This document shows positions 1 through 10,212 of a DNA stretch of 10,537 bases, piece after piece; positions within the stretch are counted from its first letter, which is position 1, and each line of letters begins with the position of its first letter. Origin of the DNA: Promethearchaeota archaeon (lineage in GTDB: Archaea > Asgardarchaeota > Lokiarchaeia > Sigyniarchaeales > SOKP01). A program made the translations under genes and the position numbers. The DNA lies in contig JBHLMQ010000080.1 of the NCBI GenBank assembly GCA_048938005.1, forward strand, positions 1-10,537. Direction: 5' to 3'. The notes under the pieces were generated by a model that had not been told where the DNA came from, ran no database searches, and saw only the letters and a program-made list of their open reading frames with translations.

Positions 1-1197
1 ATTTCACAGTTTACAATTATTTGGTGGATAACTGACACGACTGGAAGTACAATGTTGCTTTCATTAGCAGCCTTTTTTTACATGTTGCCAATGACAATTG
101 TGGTTGCACTGGCTGGTGTTGTTATTGATAGATGGAATCGAAAAGCAATAATAGTAGTGGTAGATTCGCTTCAGGCTTTTGCTATGCTTATTGTTATCAT
201 TTTATTCAACTTTGGGGTGGTAACCCCGATATTGATTGTTATATTAATGAGTATATTGGGGTTGTTTCAAGGTTTTCATATTCCCACGGTAGCTGCAATC
301 GTTCCTACAATGGTGCCAAAGGATAAGTTAAGTAGAATGAATGGTGTTAATTTCTTCTTTACAAGTTTTATTCAATTTATAGGACCAATAATTGCTGCCA
401 TGCTATTAGTGATAATTCCAATTAAATCTATACTTTGGATTGATCCAGTTACTTTTATTATGGCTCTCATTCCTTTATTATTCATTAAAATACCTAGAAT
501 ACAGAAAATAGAAATTTCAAAAAAAAAGAATTCATTTATCGAGGATTTTAAAATTGGGTTTCGCATGTTAAAACTAATCCCGATAGTTCTTTTAATGCTT
601 ATAATATCGACGTTTGTGAACTTTCTAATAAGGCCCTATGGTATCTTTTTACCCTATTTTGTAGAATATAATCACGGGGGAGATTCTTCGAATTTAGCTT
701 TTGTTTTAGCTTTTATGAATGGAGGGATGATTTTGGGAGCATTAATTGCATCAGTCAAGAAAGAATGGAAACATATTATACTCATCTATTTTGGTGGAGA
801 ATTAACTCTAATGCTAATGTATGGAGTTATAGCACTCACACCTCACGGATTCTTTTTATTAATGAGCATCGCAGCTGGAATTTTCGGTATAGTCATTCCA
901 ATTATTAATACCATATCTTTAACAATGATGCAGAAAAAAATACCCGTAGATAAGATGGGAAGAATTTCTTCTATAGATTGGGCAATATCTTCAGCGATTT
1001 CTCCAATTGGAACTCTTATTTCTTGGCCATTGTCTGAAATTTTTGGAGTGCCTAATTTATTCCTAATTTGTTCTATTATAGGGATAATAATAACTCTTAT
1101 TTTCTGGTGGATTGCTCACGTACGAATAAATAATTATGAAAAGAGTGAACAGGAAAAAGTCGGCGTTAGTACTGATAAAGCAACACTAGAGTTATAA
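1..1197 (+). CDS. MFS transporter, DHA3/MefA-like (macrolide-efflux-like) family; 5' end lies outside the window
   Basis: Frame 1 is open from base 1 (ISQFTIIWWITDTTGST, then the ORF-track Met at 52). This matches the TM1 'QF.IIWWIT..TGS' segment typical of MefA-like MFS proteins, so ATG 52 is internal. It has the MFS motif A-like 'GVVIDRWNRK', 'P..VP.MVPKDKL.R.NG', the second-half echo 'QKKIPVDKMGR', and many hydrophobic TM segments. Stop TAA at 1195-1197. Confidence 0.88.
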   Translation: MSQFTIIWWITDTTGSTMLLSLAAFFYMLPMTIVVALAGVVIDRWNRKAIIVVVDSLQAFAMLIVIILFNFGVVTPILIVILMSILGLFQGFHIPTVAAIVPTMVPKDKLSRMNGVNFFFTSFIQFIGPIIAAMLLVIIPIKSILWIDPVTFIMALIPLLFIKIPRIQKIEISKKKNSFIEDFKIGFRMLKLIPIVLLMLIISTFVNFLIRPYGIFLPYFVEYNHGGDSSNLAFVLAFMNGGMILGALIASVKKEWKHIILIYFGGELTLMLMYGVIALTPHGFFLLMSIAAGIFGIVIPIINTISLTMMQKKIPVDKMGRISSIDWAISSAISPIGTLISWPLSEIFGVPNLFLICSIIGIIITLIFWWIAHVRINNYEKSEQEKVGVSTDKATLEL

Positions 1198-1218: not shown

Positions 1219-1737
1219 TTATTCTCTTGTTTTCATATTTTTATCATGTGTACTAATCCATCTTAATAAGGTCTCACTTTTTTTTGGAAAATTTTGAGCA
1301 ATTACTTTTGCTGCGGTATTTTTTACATCAGGATCCTCGTCTGAAAGTAGACAACTTTCAAGAACATGATAAGCATTATCGCTCCTAAGTTCCAATACTT
1401 CAAATGCAAGGATACTAACCTTTCTAATTTCACAGTTATCACTATTTTCTATGAAGTAATTTAGTAATTCGATAGCTTCTGATTTAGTCATTGATTTAGT
1501 AGTAACATAATCATAAATTTTTGCTACTGTTAATTCGTTGCTCATATATTCAAGGGCGTCTTGGTAAAGTAAATGAGATTTATCCGAAGAATTAAGATAT
1601 TTTGTTTTTTTCCTTAAATCAAAAGGACAATTATGATTTTCAGGTAATCTATGCTTATTACAGAAAATCATACCACAAAATTTACATCGGTATGGGATAT
1701 CGACTAATTTAATTTTGCAATAATAACAATATGGCAA
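1219..1737 (-). CDS. AN1-type zinc finger protein fused to a HEAT-like helical repeat domain (172 aa)
   Basis: N-terminal C4-x2-C7-x10-C18-x2-C21-x4-C26-x2-H29-x5-H35-x-C37 (CYYC...CKFCGMIFCNKHRLPENHNC) fits the AN1 zinc finger pattern, including the 'HRLPE.H.C' signature. The C-terminal half has two HEAT-like units ('IENSDNCEIRKVSILAF', 'LLSDEDPDVKNTAAKVI'). The start codon is TTG. Confidence 0.85.
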   Translation of the reverse strand: MPYCYYCKIKLVDIPYRCKFCGMIFCNKHRLPENHNCPFDLRKKTKYLNSSDKSHLLYQDALEYMSNELTVAKIYDYVTTKSMTKSEAIELLNYFIENSDNCEIRKVSILAFEVLELRSDNAYHVLESCLLSDEDPDVKNTAAKVIAQNFPKKSETLLRWISTHDKNMKTRE

Positions 1738-1856: not shown

Positions 1857-4262
1857 TTATAGACTATGTTCCAACCTGTTGATAATATCATTTTGTATCG
1901 GAGTACCAAGATCGATAAAAGTAGCATTATATCCCCCAACTTTTACAATTAAGTCCGTATATTTTTCAGGATGTTTTTGTGCATCCTTAAGGATATCAGT
2001 AGAAACAACAGTAGGTTGTATTTGCATCCCACCTGATTCAAAATAACTCTTTAAGAAATAATATAATTTATCTAAACTCTCATCTCCTTCAAGGTTTTGA
2101 GGGTGTAATCTTATATTTACAGCAACTCCATTTATCGCTAAATCATAGTTTAATTTTGCAATTGAATTTAATGTAGCAGTAAGACCATTTTTTTCCATAT
2201 TATTTACAGGAGAAAGGCTGTTTGATAAAGCGTGCATTGCTTTTCTTCCATCAGCAGAAGCTCTCGTAAAAAATCCTTCTATAACATGTACTCCCATAGA
2301 GTAGGCTCCTGGATTATAACGCCCATTTCTTATACATCTATGTTTAACTACTTCAGAGCAGAATAAATACCATAACTCGTTTGCGAGTTGATCAATATCC
2401 TCTTTATCATTGCCCCATTTATTGTATTTATTTATTAATTTCTGTCTTAGTTCTTCTTGCCTTTTGAAATTAGAATTCAAAATTTGAATTAGTTCTGGGA
2501 GTGACATCAATTTCTCTTCATAAACTACTTTTTTTATATTATACAATGAATCTACTAAAGTAGCAAAGCCATAAGCAGTAATAGAAGAGAAGTTATAAAT
2601 TGCTCCACCAGCAGTATAATCTTTACCTTTTTCTATACACCCATCAATGAGAGCAGAAACAAATGGTTGCGGGAAAAATTTATTTGTTTCATCATCTCCA
2701 ATTTCGGCAACTTTTACGGATTTTTCAATATTAAAGCGCAATTGATGAATAAAAGCCTTGTACAAATCATCATAAGTTAGAAAGTTGGTAGGATCTCCTA
2801 TTTTTAATCCACTCACTTGTTTTGTTAAATTGCAATATCCATTATTTAATGTAAGTTCAAGAACACCAGGTAAATTAATATACATTCTACCTGTTGCTGC
2901 AAACGTATTTCCTTGACTCGTAGGTTCCACACACCCTATTATTGCATAGTCATGAGCATCCTCTTTAGTATAACCCGCTTTTTTCATGGCGGGAATAATG
3001 ATGTCATCATTATAGAAGGCGATTCCAGAAGTAAATTGAAAGACCTTTAAGGTTTCTTTTAAGAATTTATCTGGGGTGTTCTTATGAATTCTTATGGAGA
3101 GATCAGTAGTTAATGCTTTGATATTCTTATAAGCTTCAAGAAATAAGTATGAAATTTCATTTGTAGCATCTTTTCCTTCTTTATCTACACCTGAAATGGT
3201 TATTGTTTGTGTATTTAGTCCAAGTGCATTTGAGATTGTAGTATAATCTGTTGGTAATAATGTAACATTCCAAGTTAACTTCAAATTTAATTCTTCAATC
3301 AATCCTAAAGCGAACTCTCTTGTGATTTTGTTTTTTTCTAAATCACTCTTATAATATGGCCATAGAATTTGATCTAACCTACCTAAAGCAACGACACTTC
3401 TATGATAAATAATATTTATGATATTTTGAGTGAAGTGTATGAGTTGAATTGCTTCATAGAACGAATTAGCAGTTTCTTTAGTAAATTTTTCCATCATTGC
3501 TCCAATAATTTCAAGTTCTTGCTTTCTTTGCTCACTTTTTTCATTTAATGCCATTCTATAAGCAAGATCAGAATATCTCTTTGAAAATTGGATAGCCGCA
3601 TTATAACAAATTTTTACAGCTTCATAGAAATTATATTTATCTTTATATTCGACATCGGTTGTTTTTATTCTTGATTGAAATGATTCAGCTTCTCTAATAA
3701 TTCCTGTATACCCTAATTTTAGGAGTTTTTGATATCCAACGCATATATGACCTTCATTAGTCCCATTTCCTATAGCAATATTAGGCGCTGCTGAGGCAAT
3801 TCTATCCATTCCTGTAATTAATCTTTTATCATAAATTCTTTGCGATATAATATCACTATATAAAGCTTTGCCTTTCCAAAAAGGAAATATATTTAATAAC
3901 TCCTTAATTTCATTTTCTTCCATAAAAAAAGGTTGTAATTTCCTATTTTCATACTTTTTAATATTACTATAATTATCCAAAGTTCCATCATATGAGTACA
4001 AATCAAGATTAATTTTTTCTCCCAAATTTTTGCTTGTCTCGTTCCCTACCAACAATTCATCATTCCTGATGAATATCGTCATGTTTTCCAGAGTGTGTGC
4101 TACTGCTTTAGCTCTCTTTATAATTTCAGGATCAGTAGGAAATTTTTTATAAATCTCTGTGAGAAATCTCATACGTTCAATACATAATTTATATTTACTG
4201 GAAAGAAGATTTTGTTTTAGTCTTAAAGTTCTTCCTGGTGTGCCATTAGCTATTGTAATCAT
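1857..4262 (-). CDS. Glycyl radical enzyme (pyruvate formate-lyase superfamily, PFL2/eliminase-type), substrate unknown, 801 aa
   Basis: N-terminal 'IKRAKA..H.LENM.I.I...ELLVGN', 'GH' at His172, 'LGRLDQILWPYY', 'TITISG....G.DATNE.SYL.LEA'. Cys loop IIGCVEP (Cys444/Glu446, single Cys), 'KWGND...D', 'ASADGR......SNSLSP', and C-terminal glycyl loop DLIVKVGGY (Gly777, codon 1932-1934). Confidence 0.93.
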   Translation of the reverse strand: MITIANGTPGRTLRLKQNLLSSKYKLCIERMRFLTEIYKKFPTDPEIIKRAKAVAHTLENMTIFIRNDELLVGNETSKNLGEKINLDLYSYDGTLDNYSNIKKYENRKLQPFFMEENEIKELLNIFPFWKGKALYSDIISQRIYDKRLITGMDRIASAAPNIAIGNGTNEGHICVGYQKLLKLGYTGIIREAESFQSRIKTTDVEYKDKYNFYEAVKICYNAAIQFSKRYSDLAYRMALNEKSEQRKQELEIIGAMMEKFTKETANSFYEAIQLIHFTQNIINIIYHRSVVALGRLDQILWPYYKSDLEKNKITREFALGLIEELNLKLTWNVTLLPTDYTTISNALGLNTQTITISGVDKEGKDATNEISYLFLEAYKNIKALTTDLSIRIHKNTPDKFLKETLKVFQFTSGIAFYNDDIIIPAMKKAGYTKEDAHDYAIIGCVEPTSQGNTFAATGRMYINLPGVLELTLNNGYCNLTKQVSGLKIGDPTNFLTYDDLYKAFIHQLRFNIEKSVKVAEIGDDETNKFFPQPFVSALIDGCIEKGKDYTAGGAIYNFSSITAYGFATLVDSLYNIKKVVYEEKLMSLPELIQILNSNFKRQEELRQKLINKYNKWGNDKEDIDQLANELWYLFCSEVVKHRCIRNGRYNPGAYSMGVHVIEGFFTRASADGRKAMHALSNSLSPVNNMEKNGLTATLNSIAKLNYDLAINGVAVNIRLHPQNLEGDESLDKLYYFLKSYFESGGMQIQPTVVSTDILKDAQKHPEKYTDLIVKVGGYNATFIDLGTPIQNDIINRLEHSL

Positions 4263-4408
4263 TTTTGAATTTTTAGGATTGAGTATAAAATTTAAAGTAT
4301 TTAATTAAATCATTAAATATAAAATTAGTTTTTATGGATTTTTAAGTTAATTAATCTTATCTTTAGATATCTAAAAATGATTATTATTATAATTTCGAGG
4401 TTTAAAAT
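4263..4408. promoter_or_regulatory. Divergent promoter region between the GRE gene and the crotonase cluster, with palindromic candidate operator(s)
   Basis: 146-bp very AT-rich gap between head-to-head genes. It contains a perfect 14-bp palindrome TTTAGATATCTAAA (4362-4375), a 12-bp palindrome ATTTAATTAAAT (4299-4310), and SD-like GAGGT (4397-4401) 7 nt before the TTG at 4409. Confidence 0.55.
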
Positions 4409-5260
4409 TTGGATTTTGAGACAATTAAATTTGAATTGAGGGAAGATGGTATTGGATTCCTAACGTTAAATAGACCAGATAAATTAAATGCTATGTCATT
4501 TCAAATGTTTGAGGATTTACATTCAATATTTGATAATTTAATGGTAAACTTGAATTGTAGGGTCCTTATTTTGAAAGGCGAAGGAAGGGCATTCTGTGCT
4601 GGTTTAGATTTAAAAGAGGTAAATCTTCTAAATATGAGGAAAAAACCTGAAAATTATAAGAAATTTTATTATCTGAATATTTCTGAGACAATTAAAAATA
4701 GATTGTATTTCCAATGGCGTCTTAGCCAAGTCATTATTAAGATGAGAAAAATTAGTCAGCCAATTATAGCCATAATACATGGAGCCGCCACAGGAGGGGG
4801 TTTTGCTCTTACATTAGCATCAGATATTCGAATAGCTGGTGAAAAAGCACAATTTAATAACGCATTTATTAAATTAGGACTTTCTGGATCTGATGTAGGA
4901 ACGAGTTATTTCCTTCCTCGACTTATTGGTATATCTAGAGCTGCTGAATTATTATACACTGGTCGCTTTATAAATGCTGAAGAAGCTAAGAAAATTGGTC
5001 TCGTTTTTAAAGTAGTAAACGGTAATGAAAATAAAATATTAGAAGTAGCAATGGATATTGCAAAAGATCTACTAACAAAAAGCCCACTTGGACTTCGAAT
5101 GACTAAGGAAGCAATTAATTTATCTCTTGATTCACCGAGTTTAGAAACAATTATTCAATTAGAAAATCGAGCGCAGATGTTATGCGGGGCATCTAAAGAT
5201 ATAAGAGAGGGAGTATCAGCGTTCTTTGAGAAAAGAAAACCGAAATATCCACTTCTATAG
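4409..5260 (+). CDS. Crotonase-superfamily (enoyl-CoA hydratase/isomerase) protein, paralog 1, 283 aa
   Basis: Motifs LTLNRPDKLNA, oxyanion-hole AFCAGLDL, 'QPIIAIIHGAATGGGFALTLASDIRIA', 'LGLSGSDVGTSYFLPRLIG', 'TGRFINAEEA' and C-terminal 'AFFEKRKPKY'. TTG start preceded by GAGGT; the N-terminus MDFETIKFEL is identical to paralog 2, supporting the start. Confidence 0.93.
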   Translation: MDFETIKFELREDGIGFLTLNRPDKLNAMSFQMFEDLHSIFDNLMVNLNCRVLILKGEGRAFCAGLDLKEVNLLNMRKKPENYKKFYYLNISETIKNRLYFQWRLSQVIIKMRKISQPIIAIIHGAATGGGFALTLASDIRIAGEKAQFNNAFIKLGLSGSDVGTSYFLPRLIGISRAAELLYTGRFINAEEAKKIGLVFKVVNGNENKILEVAMDIAKDLLTKSPLGLRMTKEAINLSLDSPSLETIIQLENRAQMLCGASKDIREGVSAFFEKRKPKYPLL

Positions 5261-5344
5261 GACTTTATAATCTAATATTATAATTATATTAATCAGTAAA
5301 TTTAAATCTAAAAATAATAAAAAATGTATAAAAAATGATGAAAG

Positions 5345-6205
5345 ATGGATTTTGAAACTATTAAATTTGAGTTGCAAGATAATGGAATAGGAATTTTGAC
5401 CCTTAATCGTCCAGATAAATTGAATGCTATGAACTTTCAGATGATTGAAGATTTACATACTATATTAGATCATTTAATGAACAATTTAGATTGTCGTGTT
5501 CTTATTTTAAAAGCTGCTGGAAGGGCTTTTTGCGCAGGATTGGATCTAAGAGAATCTATGGTCCTTCAATCCAAGAAAAAGCCAATGGAGTTAAAAAAGA
5601 AGTTTTTCTTTATAAGAGCCCCAGATAAAGATTTAATCAAAGCAAAAATGTATGGACAGTGGAGAACTAGTCATTTAATCGTTAAAATGAGGAAAATCAG
5701 TCAACCAATAATCGCTATTATTCAAGGCCCTGCTACGGGAGCAGGATTTACTTTTGTTTTGGCAGCAGATATAAGAATCGCGGGAGAAAATGCTAAATTA
5801 GCAAACTCTTTTATAAATTTAGGATTCTCAGGTTCTGATTTATCAAGTAGTTATCATTTACCTCGGCTAATTGGCATGTCTCGAGCTGCAGAAATCCTCT
5901 ATACCGGGCGCTTTATAGACGCTCAAGAAGCTGAGAGAATTGGTCTTATCACTAAAGTAATAAAAGGGGATGAGCATAACTTAATAATGTCAGCATTAGA
6001 AATAGCGAAAGATTTGCTTACAAAAAGTCCACTTGGGCTTCGAATGACAAAAGAAGCAATTAATTTATCACTTGATTCTCCAAGTTTAGAAACAATCATG
6101 CAATTAGAAAATCGTTCGCAAATGTTATGTTCAACATCTGCGGATCTTTTGGAAGGAGTTAATGCTTTTTTTGAAAAAAGGAAACCAAAATATCCAAAAT
6201 TATAA
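5345..6205 (+). CDS. Crotonase-superfamily (enoyl-CoA hydratase/isomerase) protein, paralog 2, 286 aa
   Basis: Same motif set: LTLNRPDKLNA, AFCAGLDL, GPATGAGFTFVLAADIRIA, LGFSGSDLSSSYHLPRLIG, AFFEKRKPKY. ATG start. Confidence 0.93.
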   Translation: MDFETIKFELQDNGIGILTLNRPDKLNAMNFQMIEDLHTILDHLMNNLDCRVLILKAAGRAFCAGLDLRESMVLQSKKKPMELKKKFFFIRAPDKDLIKAKMYGQWRTSHLIVKMRKISQPIIAIIQGPATGAGFTFVLAADIRIAGENAKLANSFINLGFSGSDLSSSYHLPRLIGMSRAAEILYTGRFIDAQEAERIGLITKVIKGDEHNLIMSALEIAKDLLTKSPLGLRMTKEAINLSLDSPSLETIMQLENRSQMLCSTSADLLEGVNAFFEKRKPKYPKL

Positions 6206-6230
6206 AAAAATAGAGAAAATGTGAAAATAT

Positions 6231-7076
6231 ATGAGATATAAAACAATCAAATTTGAATTACAAGAGAATGGTATAGGAATTTTAACTTTAAACAGACCTG
6301 AAAAATTAAATGCAATATCATTTCAAATGGAAGAAGAGCTTCATCATGTATTAGATCAATTAATGGTGAATTTAGAATGTCGAGTATTAATTTTCCGAGG
6401 AGAAGGAAAAGCTTTTTCAGCAGGAACAGATTTACAGGAGGGGATGATATTAAACTCGAAGAAAAATCCAGAAGGATATGAAAAATTTTATTTCTTGAAC
6501 GTATCAGAACCAATTAAAAGAAAAATGTATCATCAATGGCGTATAACCCAAATTATCATGAAAATGAGGAAAATTTCTCAACCAATTATCGCAGCAGTAC
6601 ACGGTCCAGTAGCTGGGGGTGGGTTTGGATTTGCAATGGCGTCTGACATTAGAATTGGTAGCGAAGATGTTAATTTTATTAATGCTTCCATTAATATTGG
6701 ATTAACTGGTGCGGATATGGGAAGTAGTTACTTCCTTCCTCGACTTATTAATCTTTCAAGGGCTGCTGAAATCATTTATAGCGGGAGGGGAGTTTCTGGA
6801 AAAGAAGCTGAGAAGATTGGATTTATCCTAAAAGTTGTAGAGAACGAAAAATTGTTAGATGAAGCAATAGAATTAGCAGAAGAATTGTTAACTAAAAGTC
6901 CATTAGGTTTACGTATGACAAAAGAAGCTCTTAATTTATCTTTAGATTCTCCCAGTTTAAATAATATTTTACAATTTGAAAATAGTTCTATTGTTTTGAC
7001 TTTCTCTACTAAAGATGTAAATGAGGCTTCTAGCGCTTTCTTCGAGAAAAGAAAACCGAAATATGGATTAAAATAA
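6231..7076 (+). CDS. Crotonase-superfamily (enoyl-CoA hydratase/isomerase) protein, paralog 3, 281 aa
   Basis: Motifs LTLNRPEKLNA, AFSAGTDL, HGPVAGGGFGFAMASDIRIG, IGLTGADMGSSYFLPRLI, AFFEKRKPKY. Starts 25 bp after paralog 2, so likely co-transcribed. Confidence 0.93.
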   Translation: MRYKTIKFELQENGIGILTLNRPEKLNAISFQMEEELHHVLDQLMVNLECRVLIFRGEGKAFSAGTDLQEGMILNSKKNPEGYEKFYFLNVSEPIKRKMYHQWRITQIIMKMRKISQPIIAAVHGPVAGGGFGFAMASDIRIGSEDVNFINASINIGLTGADMGSSYFLPRLINLSRAAEIIYSGRGVSGKEAEKIGFILKVVENEKLLDEAIELAEELLTKSPLGLRMTKEALNLSLDSPSLNNILQFENSSIVLTFSTKDVNEASSAFFEKRKPKYGLK

Positions 7077-7159
7077 AAAAATTCATTTTAAATATTAAAC
7101 AATTCTAATTTATTAATTCTTATTAACTTGTCAATTAACTCTACTTTAATAACTATTTA

Positions 7160-7167
7160 TTTATAAA
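7160..7167 (+). promoter_or_regulatory. Candidate archaeal TATA box for the amino acid permease
   Basis: TTTATAAA at 7160-7167, about 45-50 nt upstream of ATG 7211, fits the archaeal TTTAWAWA consensus. The low-complexity AT context lowers confidence. Confidence 0.3.
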
Positions 7168-7210
7168 GTTGAAACCACAAATATTATACATAATTAAAAA
7201 GGGTCTAATC

Positions 7211-8557
7211 ATGGAAGAAGTTAAAAAGAAACCTAAATTAAAACGTAGAGTTTCCTTATTTGCACTTACAATATATGGAGTTGGAAATATATTAGGTGCG
7301 GGTATCTATGGGTTAATAGGTACGGTCGTAGGTAAAACAGGAAATCTCTCGTGGCTTGCTTTCGTTCTAGCCTCTATAACTGGGGCTTTTACAGGATTAT
7401 CATATGCCGAACTGTCTGCTATGTATCCTAAAAGTGCTGCTGAGTTCGTTTATACAGAAGAAGCATTTAAGAAACGGAATTTATCGTTTATTTTAGGATG
7501 GATAATTATTTTTTCGGGAATTTTATCTGCGGCTACTGTTGCTCTAACTTTTGGAGGTTATCTGGCTGATTTACTTAATGTACCTTCAATATTTGTAATC
7601 ATAAGCTATGCCATTATACTTGTTATAGCCCTCAGTATTATAAATTCAATTGGTATCAAGACATCCACTAGAACTAATATCATATTTACATTAATTGAAG
7701 CATCAGGTTTAATCATAATTATAATAATTGGTTTCTTTGGAAAACAAGCACCAAATTATTTCATACTTCCATCAGATCCTGATCTCCTCTCATCATTTGC
7801 GATAATATTTTCTGCTGTTTCATTAGTATTTTTCGCTTATATAGGATTTGAAGATATAGCCAATATTGCTGAAGAAGTCAAAGAACCTCATAAAAACTTA
7901 CCTAGAGCGATAATTTATTCTATCATTATTACGACTATTCTCTACTGCTTTACTGCCATTGCAGTAGTAAATGTACTACATTATAGTCAAATTGGAGCCT
8001 CTGATGCTCCTTTAAATGCAGTCGCTACTGAAATCTTAGGACCAATTGGTGGTATAATTATGTCGTTCATAGCATTATTTGCTACAGCAAATACAGTACT
8101 TATAATGTTAATCGTAACTTCTCGTATGATGTATGGTATGGCAAGAGATAAAGCACTACCAGAAAAATTAGGCGAAATCTCACCACAATTTAGAACCCCA
8201 ACAACTTCGGTAGTTCTAACCATGTGCTTTACAATTGTTCCAATCTTTTTTGGAGACATCTCAATAGTTGCACATGCTACTGTATTTGGAGTGCTTATAA
8301 ACTTTTTCTTAGTAAATATAAGTTTGATTGCTTTAAGGAAAACTAAACCGAATTTAGCAAGGCCCTTTAAAATAAAACCAAGTTTTAAGGGAATTCCTAT
8401 AATTGCGTTATTAGGATCAATCATTTGTATCGGCTTATTATTTACATTTGATTGGCTAACTATAGTTATCCAAGCAATTATAATAATCTGTGGAATTGGC
8501 GTTTTCTACGGGATGAAATCAAAAATAGAAACAAAAACACTCAAAAAAGAAACTTAA
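7211..8557 (+). CDS. APC-superfamily amino acid permease (probable start ATG 7211, 448 aa; the ORF track extends to TTG 7169)
   Basis: 'LKRRVSLF..TIYGVGNILGAGIY' (TM1 GAG motif), 'SYAELSAMYPKSA', 'FFAYIGFE.IA..AEEVKEP.KNLPRAI', 'SRM.YGMARD..LP', 'TP', 'LR...P...RPFK'. About 12 TM segments. Confidence 0.93.
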   Translation: MEEVKKKPKLKRRVSLFALTIYGVGNILGAGIYGLIGTVVGKTGNLSWLAFVLASITGAFTGLSYAELSAMYPKSAAEFVYTEEAFKKRNLSFILGWIIIFSGILSAATVALTFGGYLADLLNVPSIFVIISYAIILVIALSIINSIGIKTSTRTNIIFTLIEASGLIIIIIIGFFGKQAPNYFILPSDPDLLSSFAIIFSAVSLVFFAYIGFEDIANIAEEVKEPHKNLPRAIIYSIIITTILYCFTAIAVVNVLHYSQIGASDAPLNAVATEILGPIGGIIMSFIALFATANTVLIMLIVTSRMMYGMARDKALPEKLGEISPQFRTPTTSVVLTMCFTIVPIFFGDISIVAHATVFGVLINFFLVNISLIALRKTKPNLARPFKIKPSFKGIPIIALLGSIICIGLLFTFDWLTIVIQAIIIICGIGVFYGMKSKIETKTLKKET

Positions 8558-8564
8558 ACTATAT

Positions 8565-9305
8565 TTATAACTCTTCAATACTACTATATCCTACAACGTC
8601 ATCTCTTAAAAAAAGTTTAAATGGAAGTTCAATTTCATTGTAGGGTTTTAAAAGTGTAAGCAAAACGTCATGTTCAGGTTTTGAAAATATTTTTTTAAAC
8701 TCTTCACCAATCCCTTCAAAATATTGGTATTGCTGAAGCACGAAATTTCCGTTAAATCTTACACTTCTGAGAAATTTTATAATTTCATCAATATCATTTG
8801 AATTTAATAATTTTCCTACATATGTAGTACGTATCTCAAAATCTATTTCTTTTTGACTGTTTAAAAAATCTACAGTTTCTACTATTTTAGTAAAATCTCC
8901 TTTAACACCTGTAATTCTCTTGAGTTTTTCTGGGTTAGGTGGGCTTTTTAAATCTAAAGCTACTCTATGAATAAATGGTGCGATTGCTTTTATCACTTCT
9001 GGATTTGAACCATTGGTATCTATACTTAAATATTTATCAGTTTTTTGAATTTCTTTACATAATTCTAGTAAATCGCTTTGGAGTGTGGGCTCACCCCCCG
9101 TAATGCTTACACCACTCACTAATAAATTAGTTTTTATGTTATCAATTAATTCTGTAATTTCATATTCTCTTCCAACATTAGGTTGTAAAAGATATTTATT
9201 ATGACAAAATTCACATTTGAAATTACAACCTACAGTAAAGATGACCATGCATGACTTATATGGGATATCCTTCGTCGAAATGTCAACTATTCCACCAACT
9301 CTCAT
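8565..9305 (-). CDS. nrdG: Radical SAM glycyl-radical activating enzyme, NrdG2-like (anaerobic ribonucleoside-triphosphate reductase activase family), 246 aa
   Basis: N-terminal 'GG..D.S..D.P.....VIFT.GCNFKCEFCHN' (Cys27/31/34, CxxxCxxC), SITGGEPTLQ, IDTNGS, ALDLK, FEIRTT, VLQQY, which is the NrdG2 pattern. No ferredoxin-like 2x[4Fe-4S] insert. The symbol reflects family resemblance only; no nrdD is present in the window. Confidence 0.85.
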   Translation of the reverse strand: MRVGGIVDISTKDIPYKSCMVIFTVGCNFKCEFCHNKYLLQPNVGREYEITELIDNIKTNLLVSGVSITGGEPTLQSDLLELCKEIQKTDKYLSIDTNGSNPEVIKAIAPFIHRVALDLKSPPNPEKLKRITGVKGDFTKIVETVDFLNSQKEIDFEIRTTYVGKLLNSNDIDEIIKFLRSVRFNGNFVLQQYQYFEGIGEEFKKIFSKPEHDVLLTLLKPYNEIELPFKLFLRDDVVGYSSIEEL

Positions 9306-9306
9306 T

Positions 9307-10212
9307 TTAGAATGAATATTCTCTTTTAATTAAACTTTCAACTTGATCTAATGGTAAATTAAATGGTTCTGGAGATTCCATTTTAAGAGATGTAAGAGCC
9401 GCTGCAAATTTTAATGATTCTTCTGGATTTTTTGAAATTCGAGCGCCTAAATAACTAATAAAAGCAGTATCACCCCTACCAGTTCTCCCAATTGAATTTT
9501 TGTTTTTCCAAGGAAAATGAAATGAATTGTTCGAATTATAAACAGAAATTCCTTTTTCATGAGTAATAAGGATTTCATTTGGTCCAAATTCAATTAATTC
9601 TTCAGCAGCACGATCCACAGTCTGATGATCTGTCAAAATCTTAGCTTCAATCTGATCTAATTTCAAGACATCTATATTTGAAAGAATTTTTCCTTTTTCA
9701 TTAAAAGATAATGAAGAATAAAAGACTTTCTGATTATCTCTGAATCTCGTAAATCCTTGGATATCAAGACATACGTTATTAAACCTCTTTTTTATGAACT
9801 TAAGTAATTCTAAATCAATTTCTCCCGCAACTATAGGACCAAGAACAAAAAATTTCGGGGGTGGTTTAAAATCTGGAATTTCATCTTTCCTAAATAATCC
9901 CGCAAATCCAAGAAGCTCATAATCTCTAAACTCCATGTTTTTGGAAGAATAAATATTTCTTAAGCCTGATGTTTCCTCAGAAGTATGAGCATAATAAGTT
10001 ATTCCATTTTTTTTGAATATGCTCAGTAGAGGGAAATCCTCTTCTTTTAATCTTGTTATTACTGTAATTTTTAATCCCATATGACTTCCAGCAATTGCAC
10101 CATAAAATACTGCACCACCTAAAGAAGTGTAACGTTTGCCATCTACTTCAATTATATCTTTAGCTAAGTGACCAAGAATTACAATGTCTGAACCGTTTGA
10201 TTCAATATCCAT
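9307..10212 (-). CDS. PfkB/ribokinase-family kinase, TM0415-like (predicted pyrophosphate-dependent, probably myo-inositol/cyclitol kinase), 301 aa
   Basis: 'ILGH.AKD', 'LGGAV.YGA', 'LDIQGF.R', 'LKLD..EA..LT', 'EILITH..G', anion-hole GRTGRGDT in place of the usual DTTGAGD, and 'FAAALTSLKM'. Its stop is 1 bp from the activase ATG (TAA-A-ATG). Confidence 0.88.
   Translation of the reverse strand: MDIESNGSDIVILGHLAKDIIEVDGKRYTSLGGAVFYGAIAGSHMGLKITVITRLKEEDFPLLSIFKKNGITYYAHTSEETSGLRNIYSSKNMEFRDYELLGFAGLFRKDEIPDFKPPPKFFVLGPIVAGEIDLELLKFIKKRFNNVCLDIQGFTRFRDNQKVFYSSLSFNEKGKILSNIDVLKLDQIEAKILTDHQTVDRAAEELIEFGPNEILITHEKGISVYNSNNSFHFPWKNKNSIGRTGRGDTAFISYLGARISKNPEESLKFAAALTSLKMESPEPFNLPLDQVESLIKREYSF

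Follow-up and report, generated by a model that had tools for sequence, protein, structure and literature searches.

A pyruvate formate-lyase-like glycyl-radical enzyme and an NrdG-type activase in one Asgard gene block: most likely inherited neighbours rather than one pathway

Genes of the contig

The DNA considered here (the window, 10,537 bp) is the complete contig C39 of G000, a metagenome-assembled genome (MAG) of an Asgard archaeon (Promethearchaeota). This genome comprises 3.72 Mb on 101 contigs and is 95% complete; MAGs closely related to it are labelled Promethearchaeota, or Hermod-, Hod- or Thorarchaeota. Open reading frame (ORF) calling, combined with Pfam and NCBIfam profile scans, places three genes of particular interest on the minus strand: a pyruvate formate-lyase (PFL)-like glycyl-radical enzyme (GRE; 1857-4262; PF02901 at 587.7 bits and PF01228 at 91.3 bits), a radical-SAM activase of the NrdG2 type (ACT; 8565-9305; TIGR02495 at 150.6 bits), and a ribokinase-family kinase that resembles TM0415 of Thermotoga maritima (KIN; 9307-10212; E value of 4e-38 to TM0415). 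An earlier, sequence-only reading had proposed that these genes and those between them could form a single anaerobic catabolic module. The comparison with related genomes described below indicates that the block is most likely a juxtaposition inherited within two related Asgard genera, and not one pathway.

The interval between GRE and ACT is occupied by genes of the plus strand. In the ORF map, a divergent intergenic region of 146 bp (4263-4408) separates GRE from ECH1 (4409-5260; PF00378 at 180.1 bits), the first of three crotonase-fold genes; the others are ECH2 (5345-6205; 166.3 bits) and ECH3 (6231-7076; 172.5 bits), and they are followed by the gene of an APC-family amino-acid permease (7169-8557; PF13520 at 175.4 bits), which is convergent with ACT. 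The layout given by the sequence-only reading is confirmed on every point: GRE has no adjacent activase, ACT lies 4302 bp away (announced as 4.3 kb) on the same strand, base 9306 alone stands between the stop codon of KIN and the ATG of ACT, and the profiles and strands of the three crotonases and the permease are those expected. The profile scan of the contig found neither nrdD nor a TIGR02494-type activase, in line with the noted lack of an nrdD beside ACT. An assembly artefact was ruled out as the source of this arrangement, because metagenome contigs from four runs in four different studies span the GRE/ECH1 and APC/ACT/KIN junctions and because the gene order recurs in relatives.

The activase and class III ribonucleotide reductase

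ACT exceeds the TIGR02495 (NrdG2) cut-off of 131.15 bits, and its 246 residues contain a CxxxCxxC motif (C27-x3-C31-x2-C34) and no auxiliary-cluster insert. Its identification as a PFL2-type GRE activase (TIGR02494), the type with a ferredoxin-like insert that holds two auxiliary clusters, was rejected: the score is 45 bits against a cut-off of 174.35, and the alignment runs only from profile position 100 onward.

In its own genome, ACT is the sole gene above the TIGR02495 cut-off, and no PflA-type or TIGR02491 NrdG gene reaches its cut-off there. The genome has one canonical NrdD, on contig C57, with a Zn-ribbon and the glycine loop RITGY, while ribonucleotide reductases (RNRs) of class I/II (PF02867) were not found in this 95% complete assembly; the class III NrdD of C57 appears to be its only RNR. 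Because the one RNR detected is of the class that needs an NrdG, and because ACT is the lone NrdG-type gene, ACT is the sole candidate for this function. It is most likely the activase of the organism's own class III RNR, and we infer that it would install the glycyl radical on the NrdD encoded on that other contig.

Two further NrdD-like proteins of 617 and 660 aa, without the C-terminal glycine-radical motif, are encoded in the same genome (G000:C9:42444-43901 and G000:C87:18742-19374; L069 6424-8277 and L070 5405-7387), one of them with an N-terminal DUF7347. Such NrdD-like forms of 600-640 aa recur in relatives, including genomes that lack canonical NrdD (G196, G197, G200, G202).

The distribution of ACT follows that of NrdD. 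Among the first 40 relatives, with ACT homologs counted at E<=1e-20, an NRDD match accompanies ACT in all 27 genomes that have it, and ACT is missing from each of the nine genomes in which NRDD gave no match. The cleanest test is provided by the genus g21 (10 genomes), because ACT, NrdD and GRE all vary within it. In this genus, the presence of ACT (G198, G201, G203, G204) agrees with that of canonical NrdD (G198, G199, G201, G203) in 8 of 10 genomes, and with that of the GRE ortholog (G195, G196, G197, G198, G199, G201, G202, G203) in 4 of 10.

One member of g21 also preserves a physical link. In G203 (L082; G203:C70, 5403-10047), an ACT ortholog (58% identity) lies 41 bp 3' of an nrdD whose product is 83% identical to that of G000, and a pyridoxal phosphate (PLP)-decarboxylase gene comes next. 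In G000 (L068; G000:C57, 8040-11849), nrdD is followed, after a gap of 0.5 kb, by the orthologous PLP-decarboxylase gene (72%), with no ACT, and no nrdG remnant was found in this gap by tblastn. Since the nrdD/PLP-decarboxylase pair flanks ACT in G203 but stands without it in G000, these data suggest that nrdG moved away from nrdD in the lineage of G000; it would have left this place in the lineage leading to the two genera with the block, and would now be found 1 nt 3' of KIN. ACT thus resembles the known NrdG (TIGR02495) in its score, its small size, its N-terminal cluster motif without ferredoxin-like insert, the position of its ortholog 3' of nrdD and its distribution, and differs from it in being away from nrdD in its own genus, directly after a pyrophosphate (PPi)-type kinase and 5' of a PFL-like GRE. 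The proposal of a single pathway, which was to be given up if the activase consistently accompanied nrdD, loses ground accordingly with the 27 of 27 relatives, the 8 of 10 g21 genomes and the gene order of G203. In the genus g4 (L066 3731-5217; L067 8696-10195), an ACT homolog (30-34% identity) is located directly 3' of a gene for protein-L-isoaspartate O-methyltransferase (PCMT), one more neighbour of nrdG that is peculiar to its lineage.

The kinase, the glycyl-radical enzyme and the intervening genes

The closest solved relative of KIN, TM0415 (PDB 1vk4, 5ysp), is described in the article text of Nagata et al. (2018; PMC5931981) as a PPi-dependent myo-inositol kinase. The same text lists five PPi-donor determinants (K171, F221, R229, R232, and M266) together with an RxGRGD motif proposed for the PPi-dependent members. 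When aligned to TM0415, KIN keeps four of the five (K171, R229, R232, M266), has W in place of F221, reads RTGRGD at the motif, and retains the equivalents of D11, D139/Q141/R145, and D234. All 32 KIN homologs compared retain the K, R, and R equivalents together with the GxGD residues. At F221, 28 of them have W and 4 have F; at M266, L is the commonest residue (21), ahead of M (10) and I (1). Both 'occluding' positions thus stay occupied by a large hydrophobic residue, a property that substitution of W for F and of L for M preserves. The acceptor pocket differs from that of TM0415, with L for I76, Y for S89 and I for L116. The description of the kinase as PPi-dependent in the sequence-only reading is therefore fair at the level of sequence, given its best relative, its motif and its four donor residues; in view of the changes in the pocket, the acceptor may be a cyclitol or polyol or some other compound. 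KIN is archaeal, whereas bacterial phyla and three eukaryotes are among the candidates named in the discussion of PMC5931981.

No inositol-catabolic cluster surrounds KIN in the window. The neighbours of KIN homologs outside the family were considered as a clue to the acceptor and rejected, as they are heterogeneous. In one genome from another family of the order (L088; G026:C86, 4837-6498), a KIN homolog (40%) lies directly 3' of a gene for glycerophosphodiester phosphodiesterase (GDPD); this pairing, a single instance, would fit recycling of inositol- or polyol-phosphate head groups.

In four genera (g1, g22, g13, and g20), most genomes have KIN and ACT side by side, either overlapping or with up to about 65 bp between them, and the two are probably co-transcribed; in about 10 genomes of g22 they are kept apart by roughly 1.4 kb of inserted DNA, or 4.4 kb in one case. 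A CCG/Fer4_8 iron-sulfur protein, whose best NCBIfam match is TfrB (169 bits, under the cut-off), is encoded directly 3' of ACT in g20 and in some g22 genomes (L077 13612-14760, L084 7813-8949, L086 6444-7574). The window lacks this gene, and at one congener locus (L057 85-1233) a homolog adjoins APC at the start of the locus, with ACT off the locus. KIN, ACT and the CCG protein may represent the older operon.

This pairing has a possible explanation to which GRE is irrelevant, namely that KIN and nrdG, with or without the HdrD/TfrB-like CCG protein, constitute an operon for class III RNR or nucleotide metabolism, where their contribution could, for instance, be a phosphorylation driven by PPi or the delivery of electrons. 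Such an operon would agree with the adjacency in most genomes of the four genera, with the CCG gene after ACT at three loci and with the retention of both KIN and ACT in G023, from which GRE has been deleted. However, ACT is found without KIN in g21 (where none of the 10 genomes has KIN), g23, and g15; in g12, ACT is present in four of five genomes and KIN in only one, there on a different contig. In addition, PCMT takes the place before ACT in the two g4 genomes outside the family, the neighbours of KIN homologs outside the family are heterogeneous, and the acceptor site of KIN resembles that of the myo-inositol kinase TM0415 rather than that of a nucleoside kinase. We consider this explanation unlikely.

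The GRE of the window scores far over the cut-offs of both PF02901 and PF01228, which indicates that the PFL-like barrel and the C-terminal glycine-radical domain are present. Its closest solved structure is the B12-independent glycerol dehydratase 1r8w (479.5 bits). In the Cys loop GCVEP, Cys444 and Glu446 align with Cys433 and Glu435 of 1r8w, and in the glycine loop KVGGY, Gly777 and Tyr778 align with the corresponding Gly and Tyr. The radical glycine loop of GREs is of the RVxG[FWY] type, and GRE 1,2-eliminases read RVxGY; the Lys found here in place of Arg also occurs in the paralogs on C65 and C70 of the same genome. A role for this substitution as the mark of a special activase was rejected, since the C65 paralog and the members of this paralog group in relatives lie near canonical activases.

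The best 120 database clusters for GRE are all at least 68% identical to it, and every named one is from Asgard MAGs. After eight were dropped for length, C444, E446, G777, Tyr778, the KVGGY loop, S289, V290, T351, and Y654 proved invariant in all 112 full-length sequences. None of the NCBIfam equivalog models (including PflD/YbiW, HypD, CutC, HpfG/HpsG, IAD, HPAD, and PFL) reaches its cut-off with GRE: the scores are 542 against 1000 for HpfG, the highest among the models just named, 477.5 against 1109 for PflD (NF007437), 466 against 1100 for HypD, and 638.4 against 678.2 for TIGR01774. GRE is thus probably a functional, strongly conserved and Asgard-specific enzyme whose substrate is assigned by no model, and the 'orphan-substrate' label of the sequence-only reading holds.

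With 1r8w, the propanediol dehydratase 5i2a, HypD and CutC, GRE shares the PFL2-type fold family, the Gly, the Cys and the Glu of the Cys-x-Glu loop, and it keeps the equivalents of N156, H164, and Y640 of 1r8w. It differs from 1r8w in its pocket, in its TIGR01774 score and in having no adjacent TIGR02494 activase. H281 (of the GHS motif), S282, Y339, H446, and D447 of 1r8w, which we take to be the glycerol-contact residues, correspond to S, V, T, T, and G in GRE; the first four do not vary among the 112 orthologs, of which 96 have G and 16 have A at the last position. In this alignment, then, the pocket residues of B12-independent glycerol/propanediol dehydratases are not matched.

The Cys-x-Glu loop is, according to the text of a 2026 review (PMC13450708), common to GRE 1,2-eliminases and isomerases, where Glu acts as a general base on the substrate hydroxyl. 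Since GRE has this loop, typical of eliminases and isomerases, it probably abstracts hydrogen next to a hydroxyl group. The loop is also shared, on the same authority, with PflD and YbiW (PDB 8id0, 8id7), isomerases of 1,5-anhydro-hexitol 6-phosphates. GRE differs from these enzymes in that it scores only 422.5 bits with the solved PflD and 370.5 bits with YbiW, in that no aldolase or PTS genes are nearby, and in that a kinase is linked to it in two genera only. The X-succinate synthases are more distant still (220-309 bits). Asgard GREs have been read as alkyl-/benzyl-succinate synthases in the article text that proposes these for Hermodarchaeota (PMC8163825); the five homologs concerned, too, are PFL-like and have only one Cys in the loop, and one close ortholog of the window GRE comes from a MAG labelled Hermodarchaeota. 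The window GRE, however, is closer to the dehydratases (479.5 bits) than to BSS-alpha 8iof (309 bits), MasD (255.7 bits) or TutD (219.9 bits).

The three crotonases are 59-70% identical to one another (ECH1 is 69% identical to ECH2 and 63% to ECH3). They have the crotonase fold, with PF00378 scores of 166-180 bits, and all NCBIfam equivalogs remain below cut-off. Enoyl-CoA hydratase has two catalytic glutamates, Glu144 and Glu164 in the rat enzyme, within GGGxE and PE. At these sites, placed without alignment to the rat enzyme, ECH1-3 read GGGFA/GAGFT/GGGFG and NAFIKLG/NSFINLG/NASINIG; they may be isomerase-type or other crotonases rather than hydratases. The APC permease scores 262.5 bits with TIGR00909 and 224.2 bits with BcaP, both under their cut-offs.

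The block in related genomes and the activation of the glycyl-radical enzyme

The block was followed in 23 related loci of the genus (L037-L059) and by whole-genome searches. The recurring order is KIN-ACT, then a variable filler on the other strand, then GRE and the gene of an AN1 zinc-finger protein. In the window, this last gene (1219-1737, minus strand; PF01428 at 43.6 bits) is directly 3' of GRE and on the same strand, and its product has a weak HEAT-repeat C-terminus (HEAT_2 at 19.9 bits, under its cut-off); the GRE-AN1 order is kept in most loci of the genus. It is followed in the window by a gene for an MFS transporter (52-1197, plus strand; PF07690 at 97.4 bits), and MFS homologs are found 3' of GRE/AN1 in most of the 23 loci, often as several tandem copies. 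Across the window, no Rfam families (the region 4263-4408 included) and no tRNAs were found, and a promoter/terminator scan gave 50 promoter-like sites against 49.3 expected from shuffles, with a bacterial model applied to an archaeal host.

In a second genus, g22 (four loci examined), the same block is present: an MBL-hydrolase gene, then KIN-ACT (with or without the CCG protein), APC-thioesterase-ECH, and GRE. The neighbourhood that is collinear in both genera includes the MBL-hydrolase, AN1 and MFS genes, which are unrelated to the others. The synteny expected by the sequence-only reading is thus pronounced in these two genera, and the other genera with GRE orthologs lack it. Moreover, the occurrence of filler genes in both of the former makes it more parsimonious to regard the filler as ancestral to the block. 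The proposal that kinase, activase and GRE were once a single unit, later split by insertion of the crotonase/permease genes, is for this reason unparsimonious, all the more so as ACT and GRE are directly adjacent in only 2 of 39 GRE-positive congeners; these two cases look like secondary deletions.

The composition of the filler is variable. In congeners it comprises from zero to three ECH genes, APC present or absent, a 4HBT thioesterase, a 590-aa alpha/beta-hydrolase, TIR-domain proteins, OsmC, a PNP_UDP phosphorylase and, in G022, an aminotransferase; ECH1 is absent from many related loci that carry ECH2 and ECH3. The ACT-GRE interval appears to be an insertion hot spot, and the crotonase, thioesterase and permease genes are most likely an independent and variable acyl-CoA/amino-acid cassette, gained and lost separately. 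TIR-domain proteins occupy the interval in L042 (5532-7052) and L053 (1461-6956), one of them as an 1831-aa fusion of solute-binding, beta-helix and TIR domains.

Each part of the block also occurs apart from the others. In G023, which is 100% complete, GRE and the filler are cleanly absent and the order is KIN-ACT-AN1-MFS; KIN-ACT without a GRE ortholog is likewise found in g13 (G178) and g20 (G194). Conversely, GRE orthologs (59-72% identity) in g12, g21, g23, g19 and two other families (f5 and f7) have no KIN, ACT, ECH or APC nearby; their neighbours are genes for DNA polymerase DP2, a Ras-like GTPase, an EFR1 ferredoxin, an HTH_10 regulator, POR subunits and lipoyl synthase. A radical-SAM gene directly 5' of the GRE ortholog of G163 was considered as its activase and rejected, as it encodes lipoyl synthase (LipA).

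These distributions bear on the hypothesis that the block is a single module, in which APC would import a compound, KIN would phosphorylate it with PPi, an ACT-activated GRE would carry out an elimination, and the crotonases would process the CoA ester. All of these parts are contiguous in the window, the KIN-ACT/APC-thioesterase-ECH/GRE block recurs in two genera, and PflD and YbiW, which are active on anhydro-hexitol 6-phosphates according to the text of PMC13450708, provide a precedent. Nevertheless, its parts have each been lost and gained independently, which contradicts such a module. KIN-ACT persists without GRE or filler in G023, G178 and G194, and GRE persists without KIN in g21 (KIN in 0 and GRE in 8 of 10 genomes) and g12 (KIN in 1 and GRE in 4 of 5), and without ECH or APC in the six outlying groups; the filler is absent in G024 and G225, and ECH copies range from 0 to 3. 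Within the window, ECH and APC are on the opposite strand, the Pfam scan detected no CoA ligase or CoA transferase that could tie a GRE product to CoA chemistry, and the PflD model gives GRE less than half of its cut-off (477.5 of 1109 bits). A single module is thus very improbable.

The GRE of the window is one of eight PFL-like GRE loci in its genome, one of which (C2b) is interrupted. The locus G000:C2:9806-12154 has a frame of 744 aa without the C-terminal glycine loop and a TAA stop within the match; it is probably a pseudogene, and an intact paralog lies 3 kb away. Next to these eight loci, the count of radical enzymes proposed by the sequence-only reading gives one canonical NrdD, one NrdG2 and two TIGR02494 activases, the latter at C97:31415, next to a GRE, and at C65:26182, 4 kb away from one, so that six GRE loci, and not one, are without a nearby activase. 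A 349-aa radical-SAM protein (G000:C26:34206-35255), whose best NCBIfam match is the YjjW-type GRE activase (81.8 bits against a cut-off of 250), could be a third, divergent GRE activase; no GRE is found on contig C26. Other radical-SAM genes of this genome with weak NrdG/PflA scores were rejected as activases, being AmmeMemoRadiSam (two), MoaA and SPASM-type proteins.

Canonical activases are also present in genomes that have GRE but in which ACT was not found. No NrdG2 above cut-off was found in the GRE-positive genomes G196 (99% complete), G202 (98%), G197, G175 (100%), and G241, four of which are at least 95% complete, and each of the five has two to four TIGR02494 activases. The expectation that GRE lacks a separate activase elsewhere is thus not borne out: besides the two in the own genome, TIGR02494 activases are present in 22 of 24 congeners, although none adjoins GRE. 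The closest paralogs of GRE (39-41%) do adjoin such activases (G023:C26, G002:C3, G004:C100, G008:C59, and G024:C32). At G023:C26:200278-212334, G002:C3:228050-234119 and G004:C100:5034-11183, two to four GRE paralogs (38-41%) stand in tandem beside one TIGR02494 activase, so that in these archaea a number of GREs apparently share a single canonical activase. The GRE of the window would most likely be activated in trans by one of the organism's own canonical activases, with their two ferredoxin-type clusters.

A number of observations weigh against this combination of an NrdG role for ACT and activation of GRE in trans. With regard to NrdD, four of the first 40 relatives (G030, G031, G034, and G037) match NRDD and yet lack ACT at the threshold used; G175 and G241 carry canonical NrdD, and ACT was not found in them. 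The two g21 genomes that disagree, each only 71-72% complete, are G199, in which NrdD is present and ACT missing, and G204, in which ACT is present and canonical NrdD missing. Related genomes, furthermore, are not independent samples in such co-occurrence counts. With regard to GRE, a tally of gene positions puts ACT 5' of it, with contig and strand shared, in 34 of the 39 congeners that have a GRE match, across gaps of about 0.2 to 12 kb; in the other five, the two genes are on different contigs (G012, G224 and G228), the order is rearranged (G006), or the place of ACT is not listed (G226). ACT and GRE likewise share contig and strand in at least 12 of 36 GRE-positive g22 genomes, where 5.6-21 kb separate them. 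In the two cases of direct adjacency, G024 (gap of 354 bp) and G225 (L051; about 200 bp), co-transcription would be possible. No canonical activase is adjacent to the GRE ortholog in any locus examined. Finally, eight GRE loci face two canonical activases and one divergent activase-like gene in the own genome, so that activases must serve several clients, and ACT could be a shared one.

The two closed genomes in which GRE is split into distant pieces are more ambiguous. These are G022 (G022:C1; L064 8130-14692 and 461212-462303) and G006 (G006:C1; L063 14271-14624 and 229040-230062), and their split genes reflect either real decay or an assembly problem. In G022, KIN was not found, and ACT is 5'-truncated and lacks its first 50 codons or so, including the cluster motif, which would also fit a shared fate of the three genes; a TIGR02494 activase was not found in this genome either, while NrdD and two intact PFL-like GREs remain.

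These points would agree with a relocated NrdG that, in the two block-bearing genera, has NrdD and the GRE beside it as clients, the linkage serving to couple activation of GRE to the expression of ACT. The same-strand order of ACT and GRE, their adjacency in G024 and G225, the shortage of canonical activases and the absence of one beside any GRE ortholog examined, the joint decay in G022 and the imperfect match between ACT and NrdD (as in G175 and G241) all weigh against the combination above and lend some weight to such a double client. Yet GRE orthologs with 64-72% identity are found in the near-complete genomes G196, G202, and G175, which have no ACT, and ACT is kept without GRE in G023, G178, and G194. 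The K-for-R glycine loop, common to the C65 and C70 paralogs, provides no mark of a special activase, and, as the whole neighbourhood is collinear, unrelated genes included, linkage by descent suffices to explain the order. We therefore regard the double client as rather unlikely.

The explanation that we favour, with a probability of roughly 65%, is that ACT is the activase of class III RNR, that a canonical activase acts on GRE in trans and that the filler is an independent variable cassette. Juxtaposition without a common function, which the sequence-only reading had admitted as an alternative, fits the data best.

Implications for Asgard glycyl-radical enzymes

In the literature searched, the supplements of PMC5931981 and PMC8163825 aside, no published description of an Asgard GRE-activase-kinase block was found. 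According to the text of the 2026 review (PMC13450708), all functionally characterised PFL-like GREs are bacterial, and the archaeal clades are without experimental validation. A new anaerobic route would have been the consequence if the single pathway had held, which the evidence makes unlikely. It is also distinctly unlikely that in the two genera NrdG has GRE as a second client and that GRE cleaves or dehydrates a phosphorylated cyclitol or polyol made by KIN. If this were true, it would represent an archaeal, PPi-driven counterpart of the logic of PflD and YbiW, in which phosphorylation precedes radical C-O cleavage, and the first functionally assigned archaeal PFL-like GRE.

More generally, the present case is a warning that a neighbouring NrdG-type activase should not be assumed to be the partner of a GRE. 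How gene order changes in Asgard archaea is illustrated, on a small but concrete scale, by the KIN-nrdG pairing of four genera and by the apparent relocation of nrdG. The GRE of the window itself is a member of an abundant Asgard clade in which catalytic residues and pocket are strictly conserved, which makes it a good target for substrate discovery.

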